In this document: positions 5,328-60,425 of the stretch, in pieces | Layout of the letters: each line of letters opens with the position of its first letter | Position numbering within the stretch: position 1 is the stretch's first letter | Assembly: GCA_000998135.1 (NCBI GenBank) | Contig: LCCV01000003.1 | Location: 6,392 to 70,391 of the forward strand | From: Parcubacteria group bacterium GW2011_GWA2_42_14 | Lineage (GTDB): Bacteria > Patescibacteriota > Minisyncoccia > Sungbacterales > GWA2-42-14 | Length of the DNA: 64,000 nucleotides | Direction: 5' to 3' | Position numbers and translations under genes: made by a program | Notes under the pieces: model-generated | Told to the model about the DNA's origin: nothing | Seen by the model: the letters and a program-made list of their open reading frames with translations, nothing else | Database searches by the model: none

Positions 5328-5705
5328 ATGGAAGAACAATCTTTTTTTCAAAAATTTCTTAGGTCCCCATTCACGCTTATCGGCGGCTTGATTTTGTTTT
5401 TAATGATTTTGCATAACATTTGGGGAATAACGGAGCGGCTTCTTTCTTTTTATTACGAAAAAAGGGGATTGGAAACAAAAATCGCCGAATTGCAAAAAAG
5501 GAACGAAGATATAAAAAAAGAAATTAATTATACGGAAACCGAAGGTTTTTTAGAAAGGGAGGGGAAAGCGCGTCTTAATTTAAAAAAACCCGGCGAAGAA
5601 GTGGCGGTAATAGTGGAAGAGGAAGAAGTGATGCGGGTCGAAGGAGTGGAACAGGATTTTTGGAATAAGATGTTTAGTTCAGTTCTTTCGCTTTTGAAGT
5701 TCTGA
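5328..5705 (+). CDS. Septum formation initiator family protein (FtsB/DivIC-like)
   Basis: An N-terminal TM segment is followed by a coiled coil (KIAELQKRNEDIKKEINY) and the ARLNLKKPGEEV motif typical of FtsB/DivIC. Confidence 0.6.
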   Translation: MEEQSFFQKFLRSPFTLIGGLILFLMILHNIWGITERLLSFYYEKRGLETKIAELQKRNEDIKKEINYTETEGFLEREGKARLNLKKPGEEVAVIVEEEEVMRVEGVEQDFWNKMFSSVLSLLKF

Positions 5706-5844: not shown

Positions 5845-6087
5845 ATGTCGAGTGAGCCATCTGGCGTTGTGGTTATGTTTAAAGAAGGGGTTACCGAAGA
5901 GCAAGTGAAACAATTTGTTGTATCCTACGGCTTTGCGGGACACTGCCTTAATCCGTATGGAGAATGGAAAGGAAAGAATTTGTTGTTTTTTATAAAAGTT
6001 CCCGATAAGGAAGAAGTGAAGTGGGTTATTGAGTTTAAACAAAGACAGGATGTGGTAAAAGACGCGATTCTAAACACCCCGGTATAA
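5845..6087 (+). CDS. hypothetical protein
   Basis: 80-aa ORF with no motif. Confidence 0.35.
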   Translation: MSSEPSGVVVMFKEGVTEEQVKQFVVSYGFAGHCLNPYGEWKGKNLLFFIKVPDKEEVKWVIEFKQRQDVVKDAILNTPV

Positions 6088-6099
6088 ACCGGGGTAGTT

Positions 6100-7200
6100 T
6101 TATTGTATCAGGAACTCTTCTATTTTTTTATTAGCCATTGTTTCTCCGTTTTGTCCTGATGCGACCCAGTAAATATCTTTATTTCTTTTAAACCACGTCA
6201 TCTGTCTTTTGGCGTACTGATGGATGGCGTTTTTTAATTTTTCCTTCATTTCGGCTCGCGCAAGTTTTTTTTGTAAAAAAAGTGAAACAAAGCGATATTC
6301 AAGCCCTAAAGATTGGAGGCGTTTATGCGAAACGCCTTTTTTTAATAAATTTTTAACCTCCTGAAACATGCCTTGTTTTAAGTGTGATTTTAGGCGTTTA
6401 TCTATTTTTTTATGGAGTTCTTTTTGGGGCAGATTTATGCCTAAAATTAGCGAATTCCAAAGATTAGCCCTGTTTTCAATGCTAATCCTTGGAATTGGGG
6501 AAATCGGTCTCGAGGTGGCTTTTACTATTTCAATTGCCCGAATCAGCCGTCTGGGATTATGATGGTCAATTGTTTTTGCGCGTTTTGGGTCGAGTTTTTT
6601 GAGTATTTGAAATAGTTCCGCTATCGATTTTTTAGAAAGTATGGCGCGCAGTTTGGTATTTGGCGGCACATTAGGAATCGGCAGGTTATACAAAACCGTA
6701 TCAACATAAAAACCTGTTCCTCCGCAAAGTATGGGAACTTTTCCGCGCTCATAATTATCTTTTATTGCCGTCTCCGCGCATTTTTTAAAATCTGCAATCG
6801 TAAAAACTTTTTTCGGCGATACGAAATCAATGCAGTGGTGAGGAACGTTTTTGTATATAAATATTTTGGAAGCCCGGTCGTCCAAAAACTGAATTTCGTC
6901 ATTGCGAGCGACCGCGGGGAGCGAAGCAATTTCTTTATTTAAGCCAATTTTAGAGATTGCTTCCTCGTTTCGCTTTCGGCGGAACTCTTCGCAATGACAT
7001 TTTTGGACAGTCGGACTTTCCGATATTGTTTTCCAGTTTCCGGGTACTTTTCCCGTTCCAATATTCAACCCCTTATAAACCTGCCTTGAATCAGCCGAAA
7101 TTATCTCGCCCTTGAATCGGCGAGCGATTTTAACAGCCAATTCCGATTTTCCGGAAGCGGTCGGCCCGACAACGGCGATAATTTTAATCTTTCTTTGCAT
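6100..7200 (-). CDS. miaA: tRNA dimethylallyltransferase MiaA
   Basis: IIAVVGPTASGKSELAVKIARRFKGEIISADSRQVYKGLNIGTGK is a P-loop N-terminus matching MiaA. Confidence 0.9.
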   Translation of the reverse strand: MQRKIKIIAVVGPTASGKSELAVKIARRFKGEIISADSRQVYKGLNIGTGKVPGNWKTISESPTVQKCHCEEFRRKRNEEAISKIGLNKEIASLPAVARNDEIQFLDDRASKIFIYKNVPHHCIDFVSPKKVFTIADFKKCAETAIKDNYERGKVPILCGGTGFYVDTVLYNLPIPNVPPNTKLRAILSKKSIAELFQILKKLDPKRAKTIDHHNPRRLIRAIEIVKATSRPISPIPRISIENRANLWNSLILGINLPQKELHKKIDKRLKSHLKQGMFQEVKNLLKKGVSHKRLQSLGLEYRFVSLFLQKKLARAEMKEKLKNAIHQYAKRQMTWFKRNKDIYWVASGQNGETMANKKIEEFLIQ

Positions 7201-7796: not shown

Positions 7797-9632
7797 TTAT
7801 TTATCTGCGAGTTTTAAGAAATCTTCAAGAGCCATTTTGCCCAAATCTCCTTTTTTGTGTTGTCTTACGCTTATGGTTTTTGATTCCATTTCCCGGTCTC
7901 CAATTATGATAATATAGGGGATTTTTTGGAGTTCGGCCTCTCTGATTTTTTTGCCGATGGTTTCGTTGCGTTGGTCATAAGATACCCGAATTTCCTTATT
8001 TTTAAGTGTTTTTACGATTTCTTCAGCATAGGAGTTGGCCCGGTCGGTTACGGTTAAAACGGTTGTTTGAACTGGTGCCAGCCAAAATGGGAATTCTCCG
8101 GCGTAGTGCTCAATAAGAAAGGCGATGAATCGTTCATGCGAGCCCAAAGGCGCCCGGTGAATAACATATACCGGTTTTTCTTTCCCATCATTATCAGTAT
8201 AGGTAAGGTTGAATCTTTTTGTGGCAAGAAAATCCAGTTGGTTGGTGGAGGCAGTTTCTTCCCGGCCGATAACGCTTTTTATTTGGAAATCAACCTTGGG
8301 GCCATAGAAAGCCGCTTCTCCTTCAGCTTCAATAAACGGCAGTCCGGATTTTTTCATAGTGCTACGCAGTATTTCAACAGACTTTTCCCATCCCTCGGGG
8401 ATATTGGCAAATTTATCTTTATTTTTCGTCGGTAAAGACAGGCGCATATAAAAGTCAGTAATGCTGAATACGTTTTTGTACCAAAACTCATGAAGTTTCA
8501 TGACTTTTAAAAATTCTTCTTCTACCTGATCTTCCCGGCAATAAATATGGGCATCGTTTTGAGTAAATCCCCGGGTCCGAAGAAGTCCGGCGAGTGTTCC
8601 TGAAAGTTCATAACGATATACTGTTCCATATTCGGCGTATCGTATGGGCAGGTCGCGATAACTGCGCGGTTCTGATTTATAAATCATGTGAGTATGGGGG
8701 CAGTTCATTGCTTTAAGGTAATAGTTGCCGTCATCAAGTTTCATTGGCGGAAACATGCTTTCGGCATAATAAGGAATATGTCCAGACATTTTATATAATT
8801 CTTCTTTGGCGATATGCGGAGTGGCTACGCGTTCATATCCCCAGTCTTTTTCAACTTTTTTAGCACGATTTTCAATCTCTTCCCTTATAATTGTCCCTTT
8901 GGGTAGCCAAAGCGGCAGGCCGGGGCCGACTTTTTCCGCGAAGGTAAAGAGTTTCAGTTTTTCTCCTAAGATTCTATGGTCTCTTTTTAATGATTCTTCC
9001 TGTTGCCAGAGATATTTTTTCAGTTCTTCCTTGGTTTCAAAAGCAACTCCATAAATTCTTGTAAGTTGCGGATTTTTTTGCTCACCTTTCCAGTAGGCGC
9101 CCGAAATCTTTGTTAATTTAAAGGCGTCCGGATTGATTTCTGATGTATTGGAAACATGTCCGCCACGGCATAAGTCGAAGAAACATGCTACATGCGACAT
9201 GTGACATGTGACCGGGTTTTTAAATTCCTTGTCTATTGTATCTTTTCCCTTGTCACTAAAAGTATGATAGGCGGTTATTTCCTTTTTTTCTTTTGCAAAT
9301 TCTTTAATGAGGTCTAATTTGAAAGGTTGTTCTTTAAAAATTTTTTTTACTTTGGCCGTCGTTAATTTCTCTCTTTTGAAATCGAGATTTTGTTTGAGCA
9401 TACTTCGCATCTCTTTTTCAATATCCTTCAAATTTATTTCTACGGTCGTTCCTTGTCCCATGTCGCTTGTCCCTTGTCCCTTTAATAAAAAATCGTAGTA
9501 AAATCCATTTTCAATGACCGGCCCTACGCCCAGTTTGGCTTGTGGAAATTTTTTGAGCACGGCCATTGCCAAAATATGGGCAAGGGAATGCCTGATTGAT
9601 TCAATCTTGTCTGTTTTTAAAAGTTTTTTCAT
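7797..9632 (-). CDS. thrS: Threonine--tRNA ligase (lacks the N-terminal TGS domain)
   Basis: The sequence shows RHSLAHIL (HxxxH), DLCRGGH and GPVIENGFYYDF, and a class II core HRAPLGSHERFIAFLIEHYAGEFPFWLAPVQ. Confidence 0.9.
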   Translation of the reverse strand: MKKLLKTDKIESIRHSLAHILAMAVLKKFPQAKLGVGPVIENGFYYDFLLKGQGTSDMGQGTTVEINLKDIEKEMRSMLKQNLDFKREKLTTAKVKKIFKEQPFKLDLIKEFAKEKKEITAYHTFSDKGKDTIDKEFKNPVTCHMSHVACFFDLCRGGHVSNTSEINPDAFKLTKISGAYWKGEQKNPQLTRIYGVAFETKEELKKYLWQQEESLKRDHRILGEKLKLFTFAEKVGPGLPLWLPKGTIIREEIENRAKKVEKDWGYERVATPHIAKEELYKMSGHIPYYAESMFPPMKLDDGNYYLKAMNCPHTHMIYKSEPRSYRDLPIRYAEYGTVYRYELSGTLAGLLRTRGFTQNDAHIYCREDQVEEEFLKVMKLHEFWYKNVFSITDFYMRLSLPTKNKDKFANIPEGWEKSVEILRSTMKKSGLPFIEAEGEAAFYGPKVDFQIKSVIGREETASTNQLDFLATKRFNLTYTDNDGKEKPVYVIHRAPLGSHERFIAFLIEHYAGEFPFWLAPVQTTVLTVTDRANSYAEEIVKTLKNKEIRVSYDQRNETIGKKIREAELQKIPYIIIIGDREMESKTISVRQHKKGDLGKMALEDFLKLADK

Positions 9633-15713: not shown

Positions 15714-16499
15714 ATGGCAAAAAAACCTTTTTATTTAATTGGAATAGATGAAGTTGGCCGCCCCAATGGGCGAGCCTCGCCTTATCAATATATTATTGGG
15801 ATAGACGAGGCGGGACGGGCCGCCAGATATGGCCAGCCTCGCCCAAACTTTATTATAGGAATAGATGAAGCTGGGCGGGGACCATTGGCCGGTCCTGTGG
15901 TTGTAGCCGGAGTGTTAATAGCGACAAGGGGCAAGAGGCATGTGGCAAGACAACTTTACGGTATTCGTGATTCAAAAAAACTTTCCGCCAAAAAACGCGA
16001 AGAGTGGTTTAGAAAACTTACGAGCAATTCTAAAATCGAATGGGCTGTGGCCAAAGTTTGGCCGAAAGTTATTGACAGGATTAATATTACTAACGCGACG
16101 AACCTTGGTGTAAGGAGGGTTTATAAAAAATTAAAGTTAAACAAAGTAGCTTCTCGACTCGGCTCGAAGAATAAAAATTTTATTGTTCGAGCTTGTCCCG
16201 TTAGAAATTCTATTTCTAACGGGGCTTGTCGAGAACATACCTTACTCGACGGCGGTTTAAAACTTCCATCCCATATTTCTTTTGAATCAATTATTAAGGG
16301 CGACGAAAAAATTCCTATTATTTCCGCCGCTTCAATTATTGCTAAAGTAATCCGCGACCGTCTGATGATTCGTCTTCACAAAAAATATCCAAAATACCGG
16401 TTTGACATACACAAGGGTTATGGCACAAAACTGCATAGAAAATTGCTCAAAAAATTCGGTAGAAGCGAGATACATAGAAAGTCCTTTCGATTTAGTTAA
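15714..16499 (+). CDS. rnhB: Ribonuclease HII with a triplicated N-terminal IIGIDEAGR segment
   Basis: GIDEAGRGPLAGPVVVAGV is the RNase HII catalytic N-terminus. Two degenerate upstream copies (LIGIDEVGRP..., IIGIDEAGRAARY...) precede it. Confidence 0.8.
   Translation: MAKKPFYLIGIDEVGRPNGRASPYQYIIGIDEAGRAARYGQPRPNFIIGIDEAGRGPLAGPVVVAGVLIATRGKRHVARQLYGIRDSKKLSAKKREEWFRKLTSNSKIEWAVAKVWPKVIDRINITNATNLGVRRVYKKLKLNKVASRLGSKNKNFIVRACPVRNSISNGACREHTLLDGGLKLPSHISFESIIKGDEKIPIISAASIIAKVIRDRLMIRLHKKYPKYRFDIHKGYGTKLHRKLLKKFGRSEIHRKSFRFS
15735..15900 (+). repeat. in-frame ~57-60 nt tandem triplication inside rnhB
   Basis: Three consecutive units starting att/tta-att-gg(a/g)-ata-ga(t/c)-ga(a/g)-g... Each unit contains a ggcgagcctcgcc or ggccagcctcgcc palindrome. 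Confidence 0.8.
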
Positions 16500-26141: not shown

Positions 26142-26450
26142 ATGCTAATGCTTAAATTTCAACGTGTTGGGCGGACTAATGACCCGGCTTTCAGGATTGT
26201 GGTTACGGAAAAGAAGTCAAAGCCGAAATCGGGAGAACATGAGATTCTAGGGTCATTTCATCCCAAAACCAAAGCAACGAACCTGAAAAAGGAAAGGATT
26301 TTGTATTGGCTTTCGGTTGGGGCAAAAGCTACCCCGAGAGTGCATAATCTTTTGGTTTCAAATAAAGTGGTTGAAGGGAAGAAAATACCGATAAAAATAA
26401 AATCCCAAATCCCAAATCCCAAATCCCAAACAAATCCCAAATCAGAATGA
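26142..26450 (+). CDS. rpsP: 30S ribosomal protein S16 (bS16) with a repeat-encoded C-terminal tail
   Basis: KFQRVGRTNDPAFRIVV...ILYWLSVGAKATPRV is the bS16 core. The tail IKSQIPNPKSQTNPKSE is read through the aaatccc repeat. Confidence 0.85.
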   Translation: MLMLKFQRVGRTNDPAFRIVVTEKKSKPKSGEHEILGSFHPKTKATNLKKERILYWLSVGAKATPRVHNLLVSNKVVEGKKIPIKIKSQIPNPKSQTNPKSE

Positions 26451-26535
26451 CCAAAATTCAAAACACGTGTTTTGGATTTTGAATTTGGAAATTTGATATT
26501 ATTTGGAATTTGGTGCTTGGTGCTTGGAATTTAGT
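26398..26535. repeat. aaatccc x5 array plus caaaacacgtgttttg palindrome plus ttggaat/ggtgcttgg repeats, between rpsP and the wzy-like gene
   Basis: The tandem aaatccc runs are followed by a perfect 16-nt palindrome. Confidence 0.8.
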
Positions 26536-37470: not shown

Positions 37471-37511
37471 TATTTTTTTACCACACTCGCTCGCTAGTTA
37501 GGATTTTTCTA

Positions 37512-37565
37512 AAATTTATCTAAATTTACATTGAACGATCGGTCAATAGTGATTTAGATAAAAAA
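37512..37565. promoter_or_regulatory. palindromic operator-like element (tttatctaaat...TTGAACGatcgGTCAA...atttagataaa), left copy
   Basis: Near-perfect inverted repeats. A second copy lies at 38153-38210, on the other side of the regulator gene. Confidence 0.5.
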
Positions 37566-37566
37566 T

Positions 37567-38103
37567 ATGGAATTAAAACATCTTATACTTCAAAAAATTG
37601 CTGAATTGGGCGAGGTGATGCTTAACGGTTTTTTCCCGTCCAAATACCCGGAAGCAAGATTATGGCGTAATCTGCTCGGAGCCGAGTCCTCCTATAAATT
37701 TTCCAAACCGACTTTTTCCGCGATACTGACTCAATTACGGGAGGAGGGATTTGTTAAGCGGAAGAACACAAGAAAGAAATCTGAGTGGCATATTACGTCC
37801 AAGGGTTTAAAGCATCTTCAGTTTAAAAAGGCGTTCAATGCCAATGCGATAATGGTAAAAAAAGACGGTATTGCGCGCATTGTGTGTTTTGATATCCCGG
37901 AGCGGGAAAGGAAGAAACGGCGCTGGATTCGGGAAGAGTTATTAAGTTTGGGGTACCAGCCGCTTCAAAAAAGCGTCTGGCTGGGATTTTCTCCAATATC
38001 GGAAGATTTTTTTAAAGATCTGGAGTTGCTTTCATTGCGAAGTTATATCCATATTTTTAGCGTGGATAAAAAAGGCACTATTGAAAAGACGTGGCAGGGG
38101 TAG
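37567..38103 (+). CDS. wHTH plus Cas2/VapD-like-fold regulator (PaaX-family-like)
   Basis: N-terminal wHTH (SAILTQLREEGFVKRK). The C-terminal RIVCFDIPERERKKRRWIREELLSLGYQPLQKSVWL resembles the PaaX_C / Cas2-like core. Confidence 0.4.
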   Translation: MELKHLILQKIAELGEVMLNGFFPSKYPEARLWRNLLGAESSYKFSKPTFSAILTQLREEGFVKRKNTRKKSEWHITSKGLKHLQFKKAFNANAIMVKKDGIARIVCFDIPERERKKRRWIREELLSLGYQPLQKSVWLGFSPISEDFFKDLELLSLRSYIHIFSVDKKGTIEKTWQG

Positions 38104-38152: not shown

Positions 38153-38210
38153 AAAATTTATCTAAATTGCTATTGAACGACCGTTCAAGGTAAATTTAGA
38201 TAAATTTTTT
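38153..38210. promoter_or_regulatory. palindromic operator-like element, right copy (TTGAACGacCGTTCAA core flanked by tttatctaaat / atttagataaa)
   Basis: Perfect 7+7 inverted repeat with a 2-nt spacer, embedded in a larger AT-rich palindrome. Confidence 0.5.
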
Positions 38211-39448: not shown

Positions 39449-40189
39449 ATGTTAGAAATATCAATTGGGGCGGAAAAAATATTTGAAGTGGCAGGGTTTC
39501 CTATTACTAATACGCTTTTGACGACCTGGATGGTGGTCGGTTTTTTTGTTGTCGTAAGCCAGTTATTGGTTAGGCGGCTTCAGTTGGTTCCGGCCGGCAT
39601 CCAAAGTGTTTTTGAAGCGGTCATTGAAGGGGTGCTCGGCATGATGGACGGTGTTTTGGGAGAGCGGAAAAGGTCAGAAAAATATTTTCCCTTGATCGCA
39701 ACAATCTTTCTTTTTGTCATATCTTCCAATTGGTTCGGTATTTTTCCCGGGTTCGGGTCAATCGGTTTTAATGAAATTTATGAAGGAAATGAAGTGTTTA
39801 TCCCATTTTTTCGGTCCGGGGCGGCAGATCTTAATTTTACTCTTGCTCTTGCCATCATTTCCGTTATTTCGGTGCAGTTTTTGGGAATCGCGGCGATAGG
39901 GTTTTTCAAGCATGCAAAGAAGTATTTCACCTTTAAAAACCCCATTGAAACCTTTGTTGGGCTACTTGAATTTATCTCCGAAATTGCTAAAATGATTTCG
40001 TTCTCGTTTCGGCTGTTTGGGAACGTTTTTGCCGGGGAGGTTCTTCTTATTATAATGGGGTTTTTGGTGCCGTATTTCGTTCCTGTTCCATTCTTGTTTC
40101 TTGAGTTATTTGTCGGTTTTATCCAGGCGCTGGTGTTTGCCATGCTGACGCTTGTGTTTCTCGGCATGGCGGTATCGGAGCATCATTAA
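39449..40189 (+). CDS. atpB: F0F1 ATP synthase subunit a
   Basis: ...RLFGNVFAGEVLL...LELFVGFIQALVFAMLTLVFLG is the C-terminal signature of subunit a. Confidence 0.9.
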   Translation: MLEISIGAEKIFEVAGFPITNTLLTTWMVVGFFVVVSQLLVRRLQLVPAGIQSVFEAVIEGVLGMMDGVLGERKRSEKYFPLIATIFLFVISSNWFGIFPGFGSIGFNEIYEGNEVFIPFFRSGAADLNFTLALAIISVISVQFLGIAAIGFFKHAKKYFTFKNPIETFVGLLEFISEIAKMISFSFRLFGNVFAGEVLLIIMGFLVPYFVPVPFLFLELFVGFIQALVFAMLTLVFLGMAVSEHH

Positions 40190-40190
40190 G

Positions 40191-40260
40191 TTAACCAACA
40201 ACCGATAACCAACAACTCACAACAGGACTGTTGTAAGTTGTAAGTTATAAGTTGTAAGTC
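40191..40260. repeat. 7-nt-periodic palindromic element (acaaccg ataacca acaactc ... gtaagtt gtaagtt ataagtt), paralog of 18583-18659
   Basis: Shares ttaaccaacaac...ctgttgt.agttgt.agttgtaagtt ataagt with the rnc-downstream copy. Confidence 0.8.
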
Positions 40261-40266
40261 AATAAT

Positions 40267-40494
40267 ATGGAGTCAGAATCAATGAAACTTTTGGCAACGG
40301 CCATTGTTATGGCGGTTGGGACCGTCGGTCCGGCGCTTGCCATCGGCATGCTTGCCTCAAAAGGCCTTCAGGCAATAGGTCGGAATCCGGAAGCATCGGG
40401 AAAAATTCAGACGGCGATGATTTTAGCAATTGCTTTTGCCGAGGCCATTGCGATATACGCGCTGGTAGTGGCCCTTATTATAAAGTTTGTGTAG
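40267..40494 (+). CDS. atpE: F0F1 ATP synthase subunit c
   Basis: A two-helix proteolipid: LAIGMLASKGLQAIGRNPEASGKIQTAMILAIAFAEAIAIYALVVALII. Confidence 0.9.
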   Translation: MESESMKLLATAIVMAVGTVGPALAIGMLASKGLQAIGRNPEASGKIQTAMILAIAFAEAIAIYALVVALIIKFV

Positions 40495-41062
40495 AGACAA
40501 GAGACATGAGACAAGAGACATGGAAGTTGAAACATGTCGCATGTCGCATGTCGCATGTCGCATGTCAGAATTAATTCACCAATTTGGCATTGAATGGAAA
40601 ATTCTGGTCGCCCAGATAGTTAATTTTTTTATTTTGCTTGTTATTCTGAAGAAATTCGCGTATGGCCCGATTTTAAATATTTTAAAGGAGCGAAGGAAAA
40701 AAATTGAAGAAGGGCTTTTGGCCGCGGAAGAATCGCAAAAAAAGCTTGGTGAGGCCGAGAAAGAAAAAGAGGGGATTTTGACAGATGCCAGAAAAGAATC
40801 GATCGGTATCATCCAAAAATCGGAAGTAACGGCCAGAGAAAAAGAAAGCCAAATTTTAACCGAGGCAGGCAAAAAAGCCGAAGGAATTTTCGTTGAAGAA
40901 AAAGCAAAAATTCACGAGGAAAAGCTAAAAATGAAAGAAGACATATACAAAGAATTTTCGGTATTTTTGAAAGAAGCATTAGCAAAAATTGTTGAAAAGT
41001 CGCCGCAAGATTTGGACGATAATTTAATACAAGAAACTTTGCGGGAATTGAAGGAAATGTAA
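40487..41062 (+). CDS. atpF: F0F1 ATP synthase subunit b (the annotated N-terminus over-extends through a heptamer repeat; likely start near 40565, MSELIHQF...)
   Basis: A TM helix (ILVAQIVNFFILLVIL) is followed by a long charged coiled coil. The first ~26 codons are encoded by gagacaa / catgtcg repeats. Confidence 0.7.
   Translation: MCRDKRHETRDMEVETCRMSHVACRMSELIHQFGIEWKILVAQIVNFFILLVILKKFAYGPILNILKERRKKIEEGLLAAEESQKKLGEAEKEKEGILTDARKESIGIIQKSEVTAREKESQILTEAGKKAEGIFVEEKAKIHEEKLKMKEDIYKEFSVFLKEALAKIVEKSPQDLDDNLIQETLRELKEM
40494..40567. repeat. heptamer tandem repeats (gagacaa gagacat x2; catgtcg x4) between atpE and atpF
   Basis: 7-nt periodicity. It generates an artefactual N-terminal extension on the atpF ORF. 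Confidence 0.85.
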
Positions 41063-41313
41063 AAAGTGTCATGGAAAATGAAAAACCCGCCAGACGTCTT
41101 AAGGACTTGGCGGGGGCAGAAAGTTGCCAGCTGTTTTCAAGAAGCGACAGAGATATCACGGGAAGTGATATCTCGCAATCCTGCCTGTTCCGAGCAGTGC
41201 CGGGGGAAGCGAGATTGAGGGATAAAAAGTGTTATATGAACAGCAATTCGTGAAGAGCCATACGGTTGGGAAAATTTGTTGGAGCTTTTGTCCGATTCAA
41301 TTAGAATAATGTT

Positions 41314-41802
41314 ATGCATAAAAAGGAGAATAATTTCGCTTTTATAGATAATACCAATGTGCATAAGGGCATCCAGATGCTCGGGTGGAAATTAGATTTA
41401 GCGAAATTTAGGAAACTGCTTATGGAGCGATACGGTGTTACCCGTGCATATATGTTTATAGGGTATCTTGCCGGTAATCAAGACATGTATCGGGATTTTC
41501 AGAATATGGGATATACGTTGATTTTCAAACCGACGCTCCTTAACAAAAACGGTGAAGTAAAAGGCAATTGTGATGCGGAGTTAGTGTTGCAAGTCATGAT
41601 TGACCTTAGTGAATATGGGAAAGCCGTGATTGTTACGGGTGACGGCGATTTTCAATGCCTCGTGAAGCATTTGAGAAAAATCGGCAAATTGGGCTATGTC
41701 GTTAGCCCAAACATAAAATGGTGCTCAATTTTGTTAAAACGCGAGGCGAGAAGTAACCACGTATTTATTGAAGAAATGAGGTCTAGGTTGGAGTTGAAAT
41801 GA
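41314..41802 (+). CDS. NYN-domain (LabA-like) protein inserted in the ATP synthase operon
   Basis: FIDNTNV...AVIVTGDGDF is the NYN/LabA signature. Confidence 0.7.
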   Translation: MHKKENNFAFIDNTNVHKGIQMLGWKLDLAKFRKLLMERYGVTRAYMFIGYLAGNQDMYRDFQNMGYTLIFKPTLLNKNGEVKGNCDAELVLQVMIDLSEYGKAVIVTGDGDFQCLVKHLRKIGKLGYVVSPNIKWCSILLKREARSNHVFIEEMRSRLELK

Positions 41803-41936
41803 AAAGGGCCCCTGATGGGACGAACCTATTAAGGGACCTTTTCGTATTGATACCACTAGTATAGCAAATGGAGGACTATTGTCAAGCGGGTGGGGATAAC
41901 TAGATTTCTCATTCGCATAGCACATCAAAAAGTGTT

Positions 41937-42360
41937 ATGGAAAGCAATAATGAGAAAAAAGAGAAATTCTACGCTGGCGGATTTCTGTATAACCCCCAAA
42001 TAAAATCGGTGCTTTTGCATCACCGCGATGATAAAACACCAATTCACCCGAATCAGTGGGGATTTTTTGGGGGTCAGAACGAAGGTAGCGAATCGCCAAA
42101 AGAATGTTTTATACGGGAATTGAAAGAAGAGCTCGGCGTTGAAGTGTGGGAAAGTGAAGTGAAGGTATTGTGCGATTATTTGAATAAAAATCGCGGAACT
42201 TGGCGTTCTATTCTATGTTCAAAGTAAACTAGATAAATCGCAAATGACACTTGGGGAAGGGGCGGGTTTTGACTGGATACCGCTTGCAAAAGTATTTGAG
42301 TATGATTTAACTGAGAAAACGGCCCACGATTTAAAAACATTCCTGCGGTTAAAGGAGTAA
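41937..42360 (+). pseudogene. NUDIX hydrolase, apparently frameshifted near 42215-42230
   Basis: The Nudix box GGQNEGSESPKECFIRELKEELGV lies in frame 0, which ends at 42227. The C-terminal-like remainder (LGEGAGFDWIPL...) continues in the +1 frame up to 42360. Confidence 0.45.
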
Positions 42361-42415
42361 ATATAAGAGGAGTTAGGGTAATAAATAAAGAAATTTAAAA
42401 AAGTCAGGTCATTTT

Positions 42416-42784
42416 ATGAAATACCAGTCCAAAATTTATGCCCGAGCTTTTTTGGGGGCGTATGAAAAAAAATCCGCGCCGGAAACGGTCAGGAGGTTTT
42501 TAGGCCTTGTCAGAAAAAACGGCGATTTTTCAAAATTGCCGAAAATTTTGTACGATTTTAAAAAACTTTATAATAAAAATCATGGAATTAAGGAGGTAAA
42601 AGTGGAAATAGCGCGAGAGGATAAAAGCATAATCAATCAAGTTAAAGAAATTTTAAAATTAAAACAGGAGCCGGAAGTTGAAATCAAAAAAGAAATTTTA
42701 GGAGGTGTTATTGTTTCTATTGATGATGAAGTTATTGTTGATGGAAGTATTAAGTCAAGAATTGATAATATGTTTAGGAATTAG
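42416..42784 (+). CDS. atpH: F0F1 ATP synthase subunit delta (short form)
   Basis: By its position in the operon and its C-terminus ...ILGGVIVSIDDEVIVDGSIKSRIDNM, which resembles the delta C-terminus. Confidence 0.7.
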   Translation: MKYQSKIYARAFLGAYEKKSAPETVRRFLGLVRKNGDFSKLPKILYDFKKLYNKNHGIKEVKVEIAREDKSIINQVKEILKLKQEPEVEIKKEILGGVIVSIDDEVIVDGSIKSRIDNMFRN

Positions 42785-42830
42785 AAACGGAATTACGCTG
42801 ATTGAGTACGCTGAAATACGCTGAAAAAAC

Positions 42831-43247
42831 ATGAACAAAGTTAAAGATTTTTTATATGAAAGAGAATCGTATGAAATTCGTGGCGCCATTTTTGAAGTTT
42901 GGAAAAACTTTAGGGGAGTTTTTAAGGAAAAGATAATTGAGAATGCCCTGAAGAAAGAATTGAGGTATAGAGGATTTATTGTAGAATCACAGAAGAAAAT
43001 AGACATTTACTATAAAGGCGAGAAGGTTGACAATTATACTCCAGATATTATTGTTAATAATTCCATTCTTATGGAATTAAAATCGAAGTCATTTTTAACC
43101 AAAGAAGACGAAAGGCAATTTTGGTATTATTTACGAGGAAGCCAGTACATATTAGGATTTTTAGTTAACTTCGGTTCAAAAGAAATAGAAATAAGGAGGA
43201 GAATTTATGATAAGGCCAGAGAGCAATATAAAGAAATTAGCGTTTAA
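42831..43247 (+). CDS. GxxExxY / PD-(D/E)XK (PDDEXK_3-like) family protein inserted between atpH and atpA
   Basis: ESYEIRGAIFEVWKNFRGVFKEKIIENAL...IYYKGEKVDNYTPDIIVNNSILMELKSK...LGFLVNFG matches this family as I recall it. It is flanked by tacgctga / tcagcgta repeats. Confidence 0.7.
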   Translation: MNKVKDFLYERESYEIRGAIFEVWKNFRGVFKEKIIENALKKELRYRGFIVESQKKIDIYYKGEKVDNYTPDIIVNNSILMELKSKSFLTKEDERQFWYYLRGSQYILGFLVNFGSKEIEIRRRIYDKAREQYKEISV

Positions 43248-43287
43248 TCAGCGTACTCATCCGTAATATCAGCTTCTACACACATTA

Positions 43288-44907
43288 ATGCAAGAAATAA
43301 TTAATAAGTTAAAAAAAGAAATTGAGGGTTTTAAATCCGAAATCAAGGCCGAAAAAATCGGGCGGGTTTTTGAAGTGGGCGACGGGGTATGCAGAATTTG
43401 GGGGTTATCGGATGCCATGGCGCAGGAGTTGTTGGAAATAGAAACTGATTCGGGCGCGGTAAACGCCATTGCCTTGAATTTAGAGGAAGATTCTATTGGG
43501 GCAGTAATTCTCGGCGATTTTTTGAAAGTGAAAGAAGGAAATGTGGTAAAGGGAACCGGCCGCGTTCTTTCTTTGCGCGTTGGAGATGAACTGGTTGGCA
43601 GAGTTGTAAATGCCTTGGGTGACCCAATTGACGGTAGGGGACCTGTATTTGATACCGTAGACAGTCGCGGACAGGACGCAGTCAAAGCGCGGACAAACGC
43701 AGACCATACGCAGACTGACGCAGAAAGTCCGCGACTGTCCGCGTTAAGTCCGCGTGAGTCCGCGCCTGGATATTACCCGGTAGAAAAGATAGCCCCCGGT
43801 GTAATTACCCGTGAATCCGTAAATACCCCGCTTCATACCGGAATTAAAGCGATTGATGCCATGATTCCCATTGGCAGGGGGCAACGCGAACTTATTATCG
43901 GCGACAGGCAGACCGGAAAAACAGCAATAGTTATTGATGCCATTATTAATCAACAGCAGGATACTTCGCGAAGAACGCCGATTTGCATTTATGTTGCTGT
44001 GGGCCAGAGAGAGTCAAAAGTCGCCAAAATTGTTGCTGAATTGAAAAAGAAAGGAGCGATGAAATATACGATTGTGGTTTCCGCATCCGCATCCGAGCCC
44101 GCGCCCTTGCAATATTTAGCGCCATTTGCCGGATGCGCCATAGGCGAGTACTTCATGGACAAGGGTCAGGACGCATTGGTGATTTATGATGATTTAACCA
44201 AGCATGCTTCAGCTTATCGCCAGGTTTCTCTTTTATTGCGCCGTCCTCCGGGGCGAGAAGCATTTCCCGGAGATATTTTTTATCTTCATTCGCGCTTGCT
44301 TGAAAGAGCCGCGAAACTCAATAAAGATTACGGAGGCGGTTCTTTAACTGCGTTGCCGATTATTGAAACCCAACTTGGCGATGTTTCCGCGTATATTCCA
44401 ACCAATGTCATTTCAATTACCGATGGCCAGATTTATCTTGAGCCGGATTTGTTTTATCAAGGGATAAGGCCCGCTGTAAACGTTGGGTTGTCGGTTTCGC
44501 GCGTGGGTTCGGCCGCTCAAACCAAGGCCATGAAAAAAGTCGCCGGCCGGCTTCGTTTGGATTTAGCGCAATTCCGGGAATTACAGGCATTTGTGCAGTT
44601 TGCTACTGATTTGGACGAATCAACAAAAAAGAGAATTGTCCGCGGACAGGTTTTAACCGAAATTTTAAAGCAGAATGATTTGGAGCCGATGCTGTTTGAA
44701 AAACAGGTAGCGGTTTTATACGCGGGAGTAAACGGATATTTAGATACTATTGATATTGCGGAAATTAAAAATTTTGAAAAGAAGTTTTTGGAATACATTG
44801 AAAAAATGAATGACGACATTTTAGAAAAAATAAAAACCTCCGGAGAATTATCACAGGAGATTGAAGATAGATTAAAGAAAATCATAGAAGATTTCAAAAA
44901 AATGTAG
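43288..44907 (+). CDS. atpA: F0F1 ATP synthase subunit alpha (with a ~38-aa in-frame GC-rich repeat insertion)
   Basis: [17 protein letters not shown] is the Walker A. The insertion [40 protein letters not shown] sits before the conserved PGVITRESV. Confidence 0.95.
43672..43776 (+). repeat. cgcggac / gtccgcg palindromic repeat cluster inserted in-frame in atpA
   Basis: agtcgcggaca, gcgcggaca, then agtccgcgact, gtccgcgtta, agtccgcgtga, gtccgcgcc. GC is much higher than the flanking coding sequence. Confidence 0.75.
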
Positions 44908-44918
44908 CAGGGTGTCAT

Positions 44919-45365
44919 CCTGAGGCCACAGCCGAAGGATCTTATAAGATTCTTCGCTCCGCTCGGCTCCGCTCAGAATGACGAAGGCTAAGTTTTGTTT
45001 TTCTCTTTATCCCAAGTGAAGTGATAGCTAAGCGAAGAATCTTTCTTTATGAAAAATTATTATGTATACATTGCAACAAATTGGAAAAATACCGTATTTT
45101 ACACCGGAGTAACAAACAATTTAGCGAGACGCATGCGCGAACATAAAAATAAATTATTCGAAGGATTCACCAAAAAATATAATGTAAATAAATTAGTTTT
45201 TTATGAAGTGTTTAAAAATCCCATTGAGGCAATAGGCGCTGAAAAGAAAATTAAGGGTTGGTTGCGGAGAAAAAAGATTGATTTAATAAAAAGCAAAAAT
45301 CAAGAGTTTAAAGATTTGTCTGACGAATTATTTTGAGATCCTTCGGGTGCGCCCTCAGGATGACG
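44919..45365 (+). mobile_element. GIY-YIG gene cassette bounded by ~28-bp imperfect terminal inverted repeats, inserted between atpA and atpG
   Basis: Left TIR gtcatcctgaggccacagccgaaggatc (44919-44946). The right TIR (45338-45365), reverse-complemented, reads gtcatcctgagggcgcacccgaaggatc. Confidence 0.5.
45049..45336 (+). CDS. GIY-YIG domain nuclease (small, UPF0213-like)
   Basis: YVYIATN...VFYTGVTNNLARRMREH...KLVFYEVF...AIGAEKKIKGW is the canonical GIY-YIG layout. Confidence 0.8.
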   Translation: MKNYYVYIATNWKNTVFYTGVTNNLARRMREHKNKLFEGFTKKYNVNKLVFYEVFKNPIEAIGAEKKIKGWLRRKKIDLIKSKNQEFKDLSDELF

Positions 45366-45373
45366 AAAAAAGT

Positions 45374-46381
45374 ATGCCTTCAGTAAAATCAATAAAACAG
45401 CGAATAAAATCAGTAAAAAATACCCGCCAGATTACCAAGGCGATGGAAGTTGTTTCTGCAACGAAAATGCGAAAATCGCAGCAATTTGCTATTGAAGGCA
45501 GGCCTTATGCCCTTGCCGCCATGGAGATGCTGGGAAATGTTTTGGCAAGAACAAGGTACAGACCGCCGCTTTTACGAAAACGAGAAATTAAACAGGCGGC
45601 GTTAGTTGTGGTAACTTCTGATAAGGGCCTTGCTGGCGCATTTAATTCCAATGTTTTGCGAAAAGCCGAAAAATGGATTTTAGAAAATAAACAAAATTAT
45701 CCTGTGGATTTAGTAACGGTAGGCAGGAAATCGCGTGATTATTTCCAAAACAGAAAAGAAAATGTTGTAAAGGAATTTATTGGTTTCGGCGATTTTATTG
45801 AGCCGAATCAGACAAAGCCGTTATCTGATTTTCTTACGCGCGGATTTTTAAAAAAGCAATGGGATTTAGTTGAAATAATTTATACTAATTTTCGCTCCAC
45901 TTTAAAACAAGAAGTAAAAATGGTTCAGCTTTTTCCGGTTGATTTGGAAAAAATAAAAGATACAATTGTGGGTATAACCCCAGAATATGGAAGATTTGCA
46001 GTTAATAGTGAAAATCCCAAATCCCAAAATTCGCCCCCTCGGCGAATTCCAGGGCTTCGCCCGTCGGAAGCAAATACTTTTGCTTCCGACCCAAATTCCA
46101 AACAAATTCAAAATTATCTTTATGAGTATAAGTTTGAGCCGTCGCCAAAAGCTATTCTAAATTCACTCATTCCTCATTTGCTCGAAATGCAAATTTTTCA
46201 TATGATACTTGAGTCAAATGCTTCGGAACATTCAGCTCGGATGGTGGCCATGAAAAACGCTTCGGAAAACGCAGCAGACATTATTCAGGAGTTGACTTTG
46301 CAATATAACAAGTCAAGGCAGGCGGGAATTACGCGTGAATTAACGGAAATAACTGCTGGTAAAGAGGCATTGGAGGTGTAA
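45374..46381 (+). CDS. atpG: F0F1 ATP synthase subunit gamma (with a ~35-aa in-frame repeat-element insertion). The ORF track starts at 45347, inside the right TIR
   Basis: The N-terminus MPSVKSIKQRIKSVKNTRQITKAMEVVSATKMRK and the C-terminus ...MQIFHMILESNASEHSARMVAMKNASENAADIIQELTLQYNKSRQAGITRELTEI match gamma. The insertion ENPKSQNSPPRRIPGLRPSEANTFASDPNSKQIQN is an inserted element. Confidence 0.85.
   Translation: MPSVKSIKQRIKSVKNTRQITKAMEVVSATKMRKSQQFAIEGRPYALAAMEMLGNVLARTRYRPPLLRKREIKQAALVVVTSDKGLAGAFNSNVLRKAEKWILENKQNYPVDLVTVGRKSRDYFQNRKENVVKEFIGFGDFIEPNQTKPLSDFLTRGFLKKQWDLVEIIYTNFRSTLKQEVKMVQLFPVDLEKIKDTIVGITPEYGRFAVNSENPKSQNSPPRRIPGLRPSEANTFASDPNSKQIQNYLYEYKFEPSPKAILNSLIPHLLEMQIFHMILESNASEHSARMVAMKNASENAADIIQELTLQYNKSRQAGITRELTEITAGKEALEV
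46011..46112 (+). repeat. composite hairpin repeat element (aaatccc repeats plus aattcgcc-ccctc-ggcgaatt plus ggaagc...gcttcc) inside atpG; a second copy lies at ~58540-58640
   Basis: The same element, reverse-complemented, occurs intergenically at 58540-58640. The encoded peptides are similar (RRIPGLRPSEANTFASDPN vs RQIPGLRPSEAKLFASDPN). Confidence 0.8.
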
Positions 46382-46438
46382 TCATGCGAATGTTTTTGCA
46401 AATGTCTCCGAATAATATGCTAGTTAAAATATAATTTT

Positions 46439-48146
<1,708 letters not shown>

Positions 48147-48191
48147 TTTTCAATTTTCAATTTTCAAATACGAAATGACGGCGCGACTTGC

Positions 48192-48222
48192 GAAAAAATA
48201 AAAAGCTGTCACATAGACAGCT
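48192..48222 (-). terminator. rho-independent terminator (minus strand), possibly bidirectional after atpD
   Basis: On the minus strand: agctgtctatgtgacagct followed by ttttatttttt. Confidence 0.7.
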
Positions 48223-48264
48223 ATTAAGCCTCTCGCTTATTTCACCTTTTTTATATTAAATTCC

Positions 48265-48501
48265 TTACGGCCATATCTCGCTGAATTTCCGGCAGTTACC
48301 GCAATAATAACAGCAAGCAGGTTTAGTGAGAAGATAAATTGAAGTTATTGGTTTCATGTTTCCAAGTGTGTTGCATTTAGGACATGAATGCGATGATGGC
48401 TGTGAACGAGAGAGCATTTCCGATATACATGCTATAAGCGTTATAAGCAGCGGACTCGCAATGGCAAAAGTTACAAGAAGAGCGCGAATGAGAACATCCA
48501 T
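48265..48501 (-). CDS. small hydrophobic or Cys-rich hypothetical protein
   Basis: 78-aa ORF with an N-terminal TM segment and a terminator hairpin downstream. Weak. Confidence 0.3.
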   Translation of the reverse strand: MDVLIRALLVTFAIASPLLITLIACISEMLSRSQPSSHSCPKCNTLGNMKPITSIYLLTKPACCYYCGNCRKFSEIWP

Positions 48502-48556
48502 GTTTTACCACTCGGTTAATTAGATATAGGAACTATTAGTAACAATATCTTCTTTT

Positions 48557-48802
48557 ATGAAATTGTCAATTTATAGTTTGCAAAAAACTCTTTTTGAGGG
48601 CGAGGTTGAAAAAATAATCGCCCGCACAACCACGGGCGAAATTACGGTTTTAGACGGGCATATTCCTTTGATTTCTTCTTTAAGGGGGCCGGGTTTAGAA
48701 CTTATTGACAAAAAAGGAAAAAAGGATATAATTAAGATTGACTCTGGTTTTTTGGAAATACGGCCAGAAAGCGAGGTAGTTATACTTGCCGATACCGCAT
48801 AA
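48557..48802 (+). CDS. atpC: F0F1 ATP synthase subunit epsilon (beta-sandwich domain only)
   Basis: MKLSIYSLQKTLFEGEVEKIIARTTTGEITVLDGHIPLISSLRGPGLELI. Confidence 0.8.
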   Translation: MKLSIYSLQKTLFEGEVEKIIARTTTGEITVLDGHIPLISSLRGPGLELIDKKGKKDIIKIDSGFLEIRPESEVVILADTA

Positions 48803-50710: not shown

Positions 50711-50759
50711 TTGTGCATAACTTTCAATTTTGTCGGAAATCTGTTATATTTTATTGGTA

Positions 50760-52111
50760 TGAAGGAAATATATTTAGATCACGCCGCTACAACTTATTTA
50801 GACCCGCGGGTAAAAGAAGCGATGGATCCGTATTGGGAATTGGAATATGGAAATCCATCCAGTTTATATCGGGTTGGCCGTAGGGCAAAAGATGTTCTTG
50901 ATGGAGCGCGTGTTTCGGTTGCAAAAATTTTAAACTGCCGTTCAGATGAAATTATTTTTACCGGCGGAGGAACCGAAGCGATTAATTTAGCGATTTTTGG
51001 TGCGGCAAGGTATTACGGCCAGCCGCAAGATACAAGATACAAGATACAAGATACAAGTTTTCGCGGTCATATTATTACTTCCAAAATTGAACATCACGCG
51101 GTTTTGCATTCAATGGAGGCGCTGGAAAAAGAAGGGTTTGAAGTAACTTATCTTGATGTTGATGAATACGGGTTGGTTAGTCCGGAAGATGTTAGAAAAG
51201 CGTTGCGGCCGGATACTATCTTGGTTTCAATTATGTATGCCAACAATGAGATTGGAACGATTGAGCCCATCGCGGAAATTTCTAAAATTATCAAAAATTT
51301 TCGCGAGGAATTAAGAATTAAGAATCAGGAATTAGGAAAAAGTCCCGAAACCATAATTCATAATTCATCATTCATACTTCCCGTATTCATGACCGACGCC
51401 TGTCAGGCCTCCGGTTCACTGGACATGGATGTTCAAAAATTGGGCGTTGATTTACTCGCCTTCAATGGCTCCAAAATTTACGGCCCGAAAGGAGTTGGGG
51501 CGCTTTATAAAAAAGCATCGGTGCGTTTGAAGCCCTTGATTTACGGCGGGGGACAGGAAAATCAGATGCGTTCCGGTACGGAAAATGTGCCGGGGATTGT
51601 TGGATTAGCTAAAGCGTTTGAATTGGCGCAAGCGGAAAAAGAAAAAGAAAATATCCGTTTAATTGAACTTCGTGATTACTTCACAAGGCGGCTTTTAACG
51701 GAAATTCCAAAAGTCGTTTTGAACGGGCATCCGGCAAAGCGTTTGCCGAATAATATAAATGTTTCAGTTTTGGATATTGAAGGGGAAGCGGTTATTTTGT
51801 ATCTTGACTCAAAAGGAATTTATATTTCTACCGGTTCTGCTTGCACTTCAACCACCCTTGACCCATCGCATGTTATTTTGGCGTTAGGCAAGCCATATGA
51901 ATACGCCCATGGTTCATTAAGATTTACTTTGGGTAAGCGAACAACCAAAGAGGAGCTGGATTATATTATGGAAGTTTTTCCCGGTATTGTTAAAAAACTA
52001 CGCGCAATTTCTCCGGTTCGGATGGAAGTCGGACAAACAAATGTCAGTCATCCCGAGGCCTTTGCCGGACAAGGTTCGAAGATAAAAGTAGGTGGTAAAA
52101 ATTATAAATAA
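50760..52111 (+). CDS. iscS: Cysteine desulfurase (IscS/NifS) carrying in-frame heptamer-repeat insertions
   Basis: IYLDHAATTYLDPRV, SKIYGPKGVGALY and SGTENVPGIVG are present. The annotated start at 50660 is an over-extension; MKEIYLDHAAT begins at 50760. Confidence 0.9.
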
Positions 52112-58460: not shown

Positions 58461-58640
58461 ATTCAAAATTCAAAGCATTAAATCCTAAATAATATAAAAA
58501 TTCAAAACATAAAAAGTAGGTGGTTTTGGATTTTGGCATTTGAATTTATTTGGGTCGGAAGCAAACAGTTTTGCTTCCGACGGGCGAAGTCCGGGAATTT
58601 GCCGAGAGGGCAAATTTTGTGATTTTGAAATTGGGATTTT
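58440..58640. repeat. intergenic copy (reverse orientation) of the hairpin element found inside atpG, preceded by aaattcaaa-type AT repeats
   Basis: ggaagcaaaacagttttgcttcc, cgggcgaagtccgg and aatttgccgagagggcaaatt hairpins match 46030-46095 after reverse complementing. Confidence 0.8.
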
Positions 58641-60070: not shown

Positions 60071-60344
60071 ATGGGACTTATCCACAGCTATTATTACCGA
60101 CCTCTTGACAAGTTTTTAAGACCTGCTATACTTAACTCTTAGCCTTTTAAATATAAAGGAGGGCTCCCTGGCCGCTCGCAGTAATGGGTGGGCTAGGCAA
60201 AATTAGCTTGTTTTATTTGCGATTTTTAAAGAATTTCGCTCCTCTCGGGGGTTTAAAGTACTCTCAAAAAGGGCGATAATATTCGCAAAACTTAATAAAC
60301 CCTATACCACAGGGCCTATTTATTTTTTTGTGTGTCAAAATCCT

Positions 60345-60425
60345 ACAAATTACGAATTTTGCCGAATTACGAATTTGATGATTTTTCTCCATTCGTAATT
60401 CGATTTTATTCGTAATTCGTAGGGG
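60345..60425. repeat. aattacgaatt / attcgtaatt palindromic repeats upstream of rpoB
   Basis: aaattacgaattttgccgaattacgaattt ... cattcgtaattcgattttattcgtaattcgtagg. Confidence 0.7.

Follow-up and report, generated by a model that had tools for sequence, protein, structure and literature searches.

Dispersed heptamer and hairpin repeats read in frame within ATP synthase and other host genes of a Sungbacteria-type Parcubacterium

The question raised by this locus is why two genes of an F-type ATP synthase operon, atpA and atpG, contain segments of palindromic repeat DNA that are read through in frame, and what these segments are. The genes lie on a 64,000-nt stretch of contig LCCV01000003.1 analysed here as a whole (below, the window), the proteins of which match those of Parcubacteria group bacterium GW2011_GWA2_42_14 exactly and those of a Candidatus Sungbacteria metagenome-assembled genome (MAG) near-exactly; the host is a Sungbacteria-type Parcubacterium, a groundwater bacterium of the Candidate Phyla Radiation (CPR, Patescibacteria). 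An earlier note on the same DNA, made from its letters, had listed in-frame repeat insertions in atpA, atpG and iscS and a repeat-derived tail in rpsP, which it took for copies of dispersed elements and not for native sequence. Our analysis upholds this view: the inserts consist of repeats, recur at unrelated genes and in other genomes, supersede one another at hot spots, avoid stop codons and keep their hairpins, and a comparison with orthologs found those of AtpA, AtpG and IscS to be missing or replaced in the closest relatives. We consider it very probable that they are tiny selfish, non-autonomous repeats, copied and filtered by selection, and translated within the host proteins as disordered loops.

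Aligned with solved F1 α chains, AtpA falls into two blocks (residues 2–120 and 160–537), and the 39 residues between them (121–159) lie opposite just two residues of the solved structures. The protein is 539 aa long, compared with 503–525 aa in its 119 best homologs. Relative L001, 93–95% identical to the window outside the insert, reads FEQSREAT at the site where the window carries approximately 40 aa; the loop measures 8–22 residues in relatives and 40 in the window. The in-frame palindromic insert announced earlier is therefore real, its reported size of about 38 aa shrinking to about 31 aa relative to the nearest relatives, net of the loop that already exists there. At the DNA level the insert contains a palindrome of about 107 nt (43662–43768), with CGCGGAC/ACGCAGA units in the left arm and four GTCCGCG units in the right arm at a spacing of about 10–11 nt, so that 6 of the 11 GTCCGCG sites of the window cluster inside 100 nt of atpA. 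It is a palindrome over its whole length and not a unit bounded by terminal inverted repeats (TIRs). The sense strand folds with −53.6 kcal/mol (z = −4.4) and the antisense strand with −64.8 kcal/mol (z = −5.8); a related palindrome in the atpG gene of relative L011 gave −59.7 kcal/mol for the antisense and −44.8 kcal/mol for the mRNA strand, the antisense strand thus being the more stable one in both protein-coding copies tested.

The common architecture of this family can be written as (ACGCRGA N3-4)n - loop - (TCYGCGT N3-4)n. Besides atpA of the window, it occupies two different sites in atpG of relatives, namely the hot spot described below in L001 and another site in L011. A genome scan with a pattern of three spaced GTCCGCG units was dominated by high-GC Actinomycetota and Gemmatimonadota, where the matches are probably due to chance or represent these organisms' own repeats; only the seven low-GC matches inspected (four in CPR, two in Nanoarchaeota and one in Tannerella) are informative. 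Palindromes of the same type were also seen within small-subunit (SSU) rRNA genes, in the 5′ region of the gene in Saccharibacteria and in the 3′ region in Harrisonbacteria (L076, 6950–7456; L072, 7565–8000), and in a Jorgensenbacteria SSU rRNA gene (L022, 4181–7331) such a palindrome directly adjoins a group I intron (6074–6283).

The element in atpG has a different build. Counted from the conserved MPSVKSIKQRI start, AtpG residues 197–250 lie opposite four residues in solved γ chains. The hairpin element proposed for this place is confirmed, and the extra length compared with the nearest relatives amounts to approximately 26–29 aa and not to the 35 aa given before. The element comprises, in this order, (AAATCCC)x2.4, hairpin 1 (AATTCGCC/GGCGAATT), a GGGC/GCCC mini-hairpin, hairpin 2 (GTCGGAAGCAAA/TTTGCTTCCGAC) and CCCAAAT, past which degenerate heptamers run on to about 46113. 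Its fold contains three hairpins (−36 kcal/mol, z = −7.7). As had been noticed, a reverse-complement copy lies in an intergenic region at about 58540–58640: positions 46012–46096 and 58548–58632 are 85% complementary over 85 nt. On the + strand, hairpin 1 of this copy together with a T-rich tail (58594–58618) fits an intrinsic-terminator-like consensus, a match at the consensus level only.

Searching JGI metagenomes with the hairpin-2 pattern led to four contigs, and altogether the module is represented by six copies in four contigs, three of them coding (window atpG and two in L007) and three intergenic (window, L006 and L008); an nhmmer profile of the element run against 132 gathered sequences found no copies beyond these six. 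The two further coding copies are both in frame within a Mur ligase open reading frame (ORF) of L007 (4553–6118). Copy 1 (5587–5684, 98 nt) encodes the same peptide as the atpG element (NPKSQNSPPRRIPGLRPSEANTFASDPN) and, compared with solved MurE, represents a clean insertion of about 26 aa between neighbouring reference residues, while copy 2 (5852–5942), which shares 81% identity with the atpG element, uses a different reading frame. All three coding copies are oriented opposite to the terminator-like orientation, and each is flanked by AAATCCC heptamers in direct orientation. The module varies between 85 and 98 nt, with a 77-nt core that is almost invariant across the six aligned copies and free of stop codons in all six frames, a property equalled by 3 of 5000 shuffles. 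In the three helices of the six copies 99.3% of the cells are paired, and four pairs show changes on both sides, none being changed on one side; on this evidence, limited to six sequences, the hairpins are kept by compensatory changes. No part of the window matched Rfam at gathering thresholds, so that the elements belong to no described RNA family.

Comparison with relatives demonstrates the turnover of repeats at the insertion sites. Five repeat types occupy the AtpG hot spot in the window and four relatives (Table 1), and three of these types occur among proteins that are 84–90% identical. At the strain level, fragment P0004, 93% identical to window AtpG, is without the module, and in P0363 the module is present together with the N-terminal variants found in P0004. 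The same picture is given by IscS, in which both inserts fall into gaps of the alignment with solved IscS and into columns that are hypervariable among homologs: insert 1 falls into a hypervariable block across 26 homologs, where 0 to about 45 extra residues and at least four peptide types were found and the nearest relative reads IPNPKSQIPNP. Several of the sites are thus more than simple insertions: they are hot spots at which one kind of repeat supersedes another. A second AtpG site was observed in L010 (10319–10459, GCA_030649305.1), where another palindrome, about 100 nt long (CCCGTTAGAAGTT...AACTTCTAACGGGG; z about −5), lengthens the protein by approximately 38 aa; P0011 has a resembling insert at the same site.

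The remaining inserts are mainly heptamer arrays. Among unit lengths of 5–12, period 7 is the only one with arrays of at least three exact copies (5 observed, 0 in shuffles), and it accounts for 27 of the 81 rows reported by the tandem-repeat program TRF for the window; chance does not explain these arrays. Both heptamer inserts that the earlier note had described in iscS were recovered, as was the rpsP tail: the last 17 or so aa and the stop codon of this gene are read from the AAATCCC array (26400–26443), with the Pfam S16 domain ending at residue 64. Beyond the four genes named before, the trait extends to threonyl-tRNA synthetase (ThrRS), RNase HII and MiaA in the window and, in relatives, to the Mur ligase of L007 and to MurD and a class-I tRNA synthetase gene (GltX) of L010, the latter two carrying heptamer arrays. 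The palindrome in miaA belongs to a different family; it folds strongly, sits in a gap of the Pfam MiaA domain (residues 51–117) and encodes a peptide including ...CHCEE...EAIS...EIASL...ARNDE (CHCEEFRRKRNEEAISKIGLNKEIASLPAVARNDE). Identical units recur at different places: AAATCCC in the rpsP tail, the atpG element and IscS site 1 of the nearest relative (read as IPNPKSQIPNP), CAAGATA in window iscS and the atpG hot spot of L005, and CATGTCG, ATGATTC and GTTGTAA at two window loci each.

Several further repeats were observed beside these genes. Upstream of rpoB, an ATTACGA/ATTCGTA heptamer palindrome (60342–60423) is 87% identical to a copy in L001 (1059–1143), which sits between atpB and atpE, unlike the window context. 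Ribosomal protein L32 (16826–17230) has 112 aa, its Pfam domain covering residues 24–73 only, and directly after its gene opposed GACAAGT/CATGTCT arrays reach into the start of nusB (17205). The N-terminus of rnhB (15714–15890) contains a triplicated motif, YLIGIDEVGR / YIIGIDEAGR / FIIGIDEAGRG, the sequence of which suggests a tandem duplication around the gene start.

The coding copies are distinguished by their stop codon content. All ten or so coding inserts are in frame and have no stop codons. Of the ten coding heptamer units, eight are free of stops whichever strand is read, the exceptions being GAATTAA and CATAATT of iscS, and these two arrays deviate from the perfect repeat exactly at the would-be TAA codon, which is changed to CAG and TCA, respectively. 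Intergenic units, on the other hand, show a stop on one strand or both in 12 cases out of 12 (Fisher's exact p ~1.4e-4 for coding versus intergenic units, indicative only, as the arrays are not fully independent). Since stop codons are avoided in frame in every coding copy, we infer that the inserts are translated rather than removed by splicing; SQNSPPR and IPGLRPSEANTFASDPNSK are tryptic peptides predicted from the insert sequences.

AlphaFold2 models were obtained for AtpG and AtpA. In AtpG (mean pLDDT 81.8), residues 211–239 and 241–252 score below 50 and have no secondary structure; this stretch lies between helix 191–201 and the C-terminal helix 258–334. The insert of AtpA (residues 124–157; mean pLDDT of the model 70) also scores below 50 and is among the lowest-scoring segments. 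The suggestion that the inserts map to surface loops is supported insofar as the loops are variable in length and predicted to be disordered; both models being monomers, we infer their exposure to solvent in the assembled F1.

Table 1. Coordinates of repeats, host genes and atp operon members (positions in the window; empty cells, no entry).
Feature	Coordinates	Strand	Remarks
atpA insert	43651-43775	+	encodes ~40 aa; palindrome; no counterpart in L001 or 119 homologs
atpG element	46012-46102	+	nhmmer 46015-46102, E = 1.6e-26; 97% identical to L007:5587-5684
intergenic copy of atpG element	58547-58633	-	between 72-aa ORF and HtrA-like protease gene
AtpG hot spot (GRFA to Y.YEYKFEP), window			AAATCCC module
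AtpG hot spot, L001			ACGCGGA/TCCGCGT palindrome; protein 84-86% identical
AtpG hot spot, L005			(AAGATAC)x6; 84-90% identical
AtpG hot spot, L010			(GCTACAA)x4.7
AtpG hot spot, L011			(CTCACTA)x3
iscS insert 1	51026-51057	+	(CAAGATA)x4.6; encodes QDTRYKIQDT
iscS insert 2	51305-51383	+	opposed GAATTAA / CATAATT arrays (51308-51380); encodes EELRIKNQELGKSPETIIHNSSFIL
rpsP array	26400-26527	+	(AAATCCC)x6.7 and downstream partner arm of TTTTGAA/TTGGTGC heptamers; rpsP 26142-26450
thrS array GTCACAT/GTCGCAT	9183-9212	-	PVTCHMSHVAC; in ~24-aa segment missing from solved ThrRS; thrS 7797-9632
thrS array GGGACAA	9451-9482	-	GQGTSDMGQGT; ~9 aa extra
rnhB array, CAAGAGG type	15925-15950	+	in frame, RGKRHVARQ; noted as array from sequence; rnhB 15714-16499
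miaA palindrome	6865-7032 (approximate)	-	in frame, ~55 aa; GTCATTGCGA...TCGCAATGAC; miaA 6100-7200
iscS	50759-52111	+	cysteine desulfurase; host gene
atpB	39449-40189	+	operon member
atpE	40267-40494	+	operon member
atpF	40487-41062	+	operon member
NYN ORF	41314-41802		in atp operon
NUDIX ORF, truncated	41937-42227		in atp operon
atpH	42416-42784	+	operon member
PD-(D/E)XK_3 ORF	42831-43247		in atp operon
atpA	43288-44907	+	F1 alpha, 539 aa; host gene; PDB phmmer E = 1e-202
GIY-YIG ORF	45049-45336		in atp operon
atpG	45374-46381	+	F1 gamma, 335 aa counted from conserved MPSVKSIKQRI
106-aa ORF	46439-46759		in atp operon; no family assignment
atpD	46749-48146	+	operon member

In the operon that houses atpA and atpG, small nuclease-type ORFs are set between the members. 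The stretch containing these small ORFs spans 39449–48802, and in L001 other small ORFs, on the opposite strand, occupy the same atp intergenic positions as the nuclease-type ORFs of the window. The GIY-YIG, PD-(D/E)XK and NYN genes are candidate selfish nucleases, for which no tie to the repeats was found. The GIY-YIG ORF is flanked, in a cassette-like manner, by a 34-nt inverted repeat (GTCATCCTGAGG...CGAAGGATC; 44914–44947 / 45331–45364, 85% complementary), and the annotated GTG start of atpG (45347) falls within the right arm of this repeat; the true start is most likely the one given in Table 1, and the annotated 344-aa product is probably 9 residues too long. Elsewhere in the window, an ORF of 178 aa (37567–38103), the product of which has a Cas2-like PaaX_M domain, lies between 52-nt inverted repeats that are 90% complementary (37511–37562 / 38157–38208); no CRISPR array was seen. 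An ORF at 1470–2588, adjoining ftsZ (2851–4350), combines gas-vesicle GvpL/GvpF and DnaJ domains, an unusual pairing for a CPR bacterium.

According to the explanation that we favour, the genome would hold several families of 30–130-nt repeats made of heptamer units and existing in three forms: direct arrays, two opposed arrays forming long imperfect hairpins, and GC-rich hairpins set between heptamer arrays. Such repeats would be copied to new locations, mostly intergenic ones, where one orientation resembles an intrinsic terminator. A copy arriving in a gene would persist only if its length preserved the frame, the frame read were stop-free and the site were a permissive surface loop; it would then be expressed, through transcription and translation, as a disordered hydrophilic loop of the host protein. 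As few loops are tolerant, insertions would accumulate at the same positions, which expansion, contraction and conversion of the arrays would turn into hypervariable hot spots. In view of the absence of TIRs and target-site duplications (TSDs) and of the better folding of one strand, copying would most likely proceed via a single-stranded hairpin (IS200/RAYT-like; RAYT, REP-associated tyrosine transposase) or via template switching at replication.

A number of observations weigh against this explanation. Pfam scans, which covered 50 ORFs of the window and thereby nearly all that reach 100 aa, revealed no transposase, reverse transcriptase or RAYT, no TIR was found, and a TSD was found neither at the atpG site nor at the two Mur ligase sites, these being the three coding sites looked at; that the elements were copied is concluded from sequence identity. 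The atpG element has just two copies within the window and six overall, and its hairpin-2 pattern gave no matches in a genome collection of species representatives, which evidently does not include the source genome or near relatives of it. Likewise, phmmer with the 35-aa insert peptide against 1.84 billion representatives returned none, which says nothing about the host range, since the query is short and representatives need not carry inserts. A YK[ILP]Q motif common to many AtpG relatives points to an ancestral array, and some of the additional residues may thus be ancient rather than recently inserted. In addition, the case for translation is drawn from sequence, and the structural picture comes from monomer models, of which that of AtpA is mediocre.

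Among the alternatives, an origin in place, with heptamer arrays produced by replication slippage and palindromes by template switching, is possible, if rather doubtful. It accounts for the length polymorphism at the same sites and for the AtpG hot-spot arrays of L005 and L010, which differ by one propagated substitution (CAAGATA versus CAAGCTA), as expected from concerted in-situ evolution. Heptamer simple sequence repeats (SSRs) are, moreover, the commonest long SSR class in many bacteria, and slippage of the polymerase has been named as their source (PMC4679880, which summarises Mrazek et al. 2007). Slippage, however, cannot yield a non-tandem module of three hairpins and 98 nt that atpG shares, at 97% identity, with a Mur ligase gene on another contig, nor can it explain the recurrence of AAATCCC, CAAGATA, CATGTCG, ATGATTC and GTTGTAA at unrelated loci. 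Slippage and conversion are clearly active within arrays and probably drive the hot-spot turnover; slippage probably acts after insertion and in this way complements the copying of selfish repeats.

That the inserts are exapted functional parts, either regulatory loops at the position of the redox loop of γ or mRNA hairpins tuning translation or stability of the atp operon, we hold to be quite unlikely. The AtpG site does coincide with the chloroplast/cyanobacterial γ insertion, the hairpins show the compensatory changes mentioned above, and the insert peptide is invariant across population variants while other positions vary. Nevertheless, the closest relatives either do without the inserts or have unrelated sequence at the same site, the Mur ligase reads one and the same module in two different frames, and the insert peptides are predicted to be disordered. 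Intergenic copies retain the hairpins too, hence conservation of the hairpins is independent of the host gene.

Removal of the inserts before the mature protein is formed, by mini-introns, inteins or translational bypass, is highly improbable. CPR rRNA genes are known to carry introns, a group I intron adjoins the palindrome in L022, and the inserts do make strong mRNA hairpins. Yet the preservation of frame and the avoidance of stop codons, including the point changes at would-be TAA codons, form a constraint that would not exist if the inserts were removed; Rfam recognized no intron in the window, and inserts of 10–40 aa are far below intein size, their junctions being without the C/S/T...HN-C/S/T pattern. 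The earlier remark that no splicing motifs were seen stands. An assembly or binning artefact, to which short repeats could have led short-read assemblers by mis-joining them into genes, deserves practically no credence, as two MAGs with separate names and several ENA and JGI contigs encode AtpA (539 aa) and AtpG (335/344 aa) with the same inserts but with differences at other residues, and the flanks are collinear with those of relatives.

Returning to selfish repeats, their copying could be imagined as part of something larger: heptamer arrays, rather than being passive products of slippage, might be the substrate of a dedicated copying system widespread in CPR, serving as landing pads for hairpin modules, with the same families settling in loops of proteins and helices of rRNAs in several CPR phyla. 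We regard this as speculative and unlikely. Landing pads would explain why the module always lies between AAATCCC repeats, and, if true, such a system would be a general source of CPR lineage-specific insertions and might also give rise to new regulatory loops such as the one in γ.

CPR proteins and rRNAs are known for their lineage-specific insertions, and the repeats described here would provide a concrete source for the odd ones among them. Selfish DNA translated within essential proteins would thereby be extended from Rickettsia to the Candidate Phyla Radiation, in an architecture that differs from the Rickettsia case by heptamer arrays and by hairpins open in six reading frames. For annotation the observations are a warning, in that several annotated starts, tails and "hypothetical" peptides are repeat read-through. 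The inserts also offer natural maps of insertion tolerance for ATP synthase α and γ, IscS, ThrRS and Mur ligases, and the hot-spot turnover could serve as a tractable system for studying how such elements move.

No relevant description was found in the literature on palindromic or in-frame repeats in CPR/Patescibacteria, and comparison has to be made with systems of other organisms. In AtpG, the insertion occupies the same gap as that of chloroplast and cyanobacterial γ subunits, after the final strand of the Rossmann-like domain and ahead of the C-terminal helix; in alignment coordinates the gap holds 64 residues in the window, about 50 in chloroplast γ (6fkf_g) and about 6 in ordinary bacterial γ subunits. 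The chloroplast segment, known as the redox-regulatory loop, is conserved, structured and regulatory, whereas the window loop is lineage-specific, repeat-derived and predicted to be disordered.

Closer in kind are the cyanobacterial 7-nt tandem repeats (STRR) with nested small dispersed repeats (SDR), which Elhai and co-workers reportedly described in 2008 as apparently mobile without recognisable transposase features. They share with our elements the genome-wide enrichment in 7-nt arrays, the nesting of hairpin modules in arrays and an apparent mobility without transposase features; the phylum and the unit sequences are different, and here many arrays are located within essential coding sequence. 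REP/REPIN-RAYT and IS200/IS605-derived elements are similar in being hairpin-based, in the absence of TIRs and TSDs and in the strand asymmetry of their hairpins (PMC3116915), an asymmetry that suggests a single-strand intermediate. REPINs, however, are extragenic and accompanied by a RAYT gene (PMC3116915), whereas the present elements enter genes, and the Pfam scans of 50 ORFs gave no match to RAYT or Y1 transposases. The label "MITE-like" (MITE, miniature inverted-repeat transposable element) used in the earlier note holds as an analogy only. Like MITEs (PMC10969869), the elements are small and non-autonomous, and they occur in dispersed copies, at times inside genes with which they are fused in frame, but TIRs on the atpG module and TSDs at the three coding sites were sought and not found, the module ends being direct heptamers (AAATCCC...CCCAAAT) in all coding copies, and no parent insertion sequence or transposase was seen among the scanned window ORFs of at least about 100 aa.

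The best counterpart is provided by the Rickettsia palindromic elements (RPE), interspersed repeats of about 100–150 bp that abound between genes as well as in protein-coding sequence (PMC1779305; PMC10969869; Ogata et al. 2000, 2002). RPE resemble the present elements in being hairpin-forming and interspersed, in occurring between genes as well as in frame within housekeeping genes, where the insert is compatible with the fold and orthologs lack it, and in having copies also in stable RNA genes, a transposase being known for neither. The window indeed exhibits the traits of RPE: coding and intergenic copies, hairpins (z from −4.4 to −7.7) and in-frame inserts missing from orthologs. The host, however, belongs to CPR and not to Rickettsiales, the arrays are heptamer-based, the module measures 85–98 nt against 100–150 bp, its core is open in six frames, of which at least two are used, and the insertion sites are hot spots with turnover of families. 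Set apart from RPE-1 to RPE-10 by host and architecture, the elements of this Parcubacterium are not members of the RPE families, and by analogy they appear to work as RPE do.

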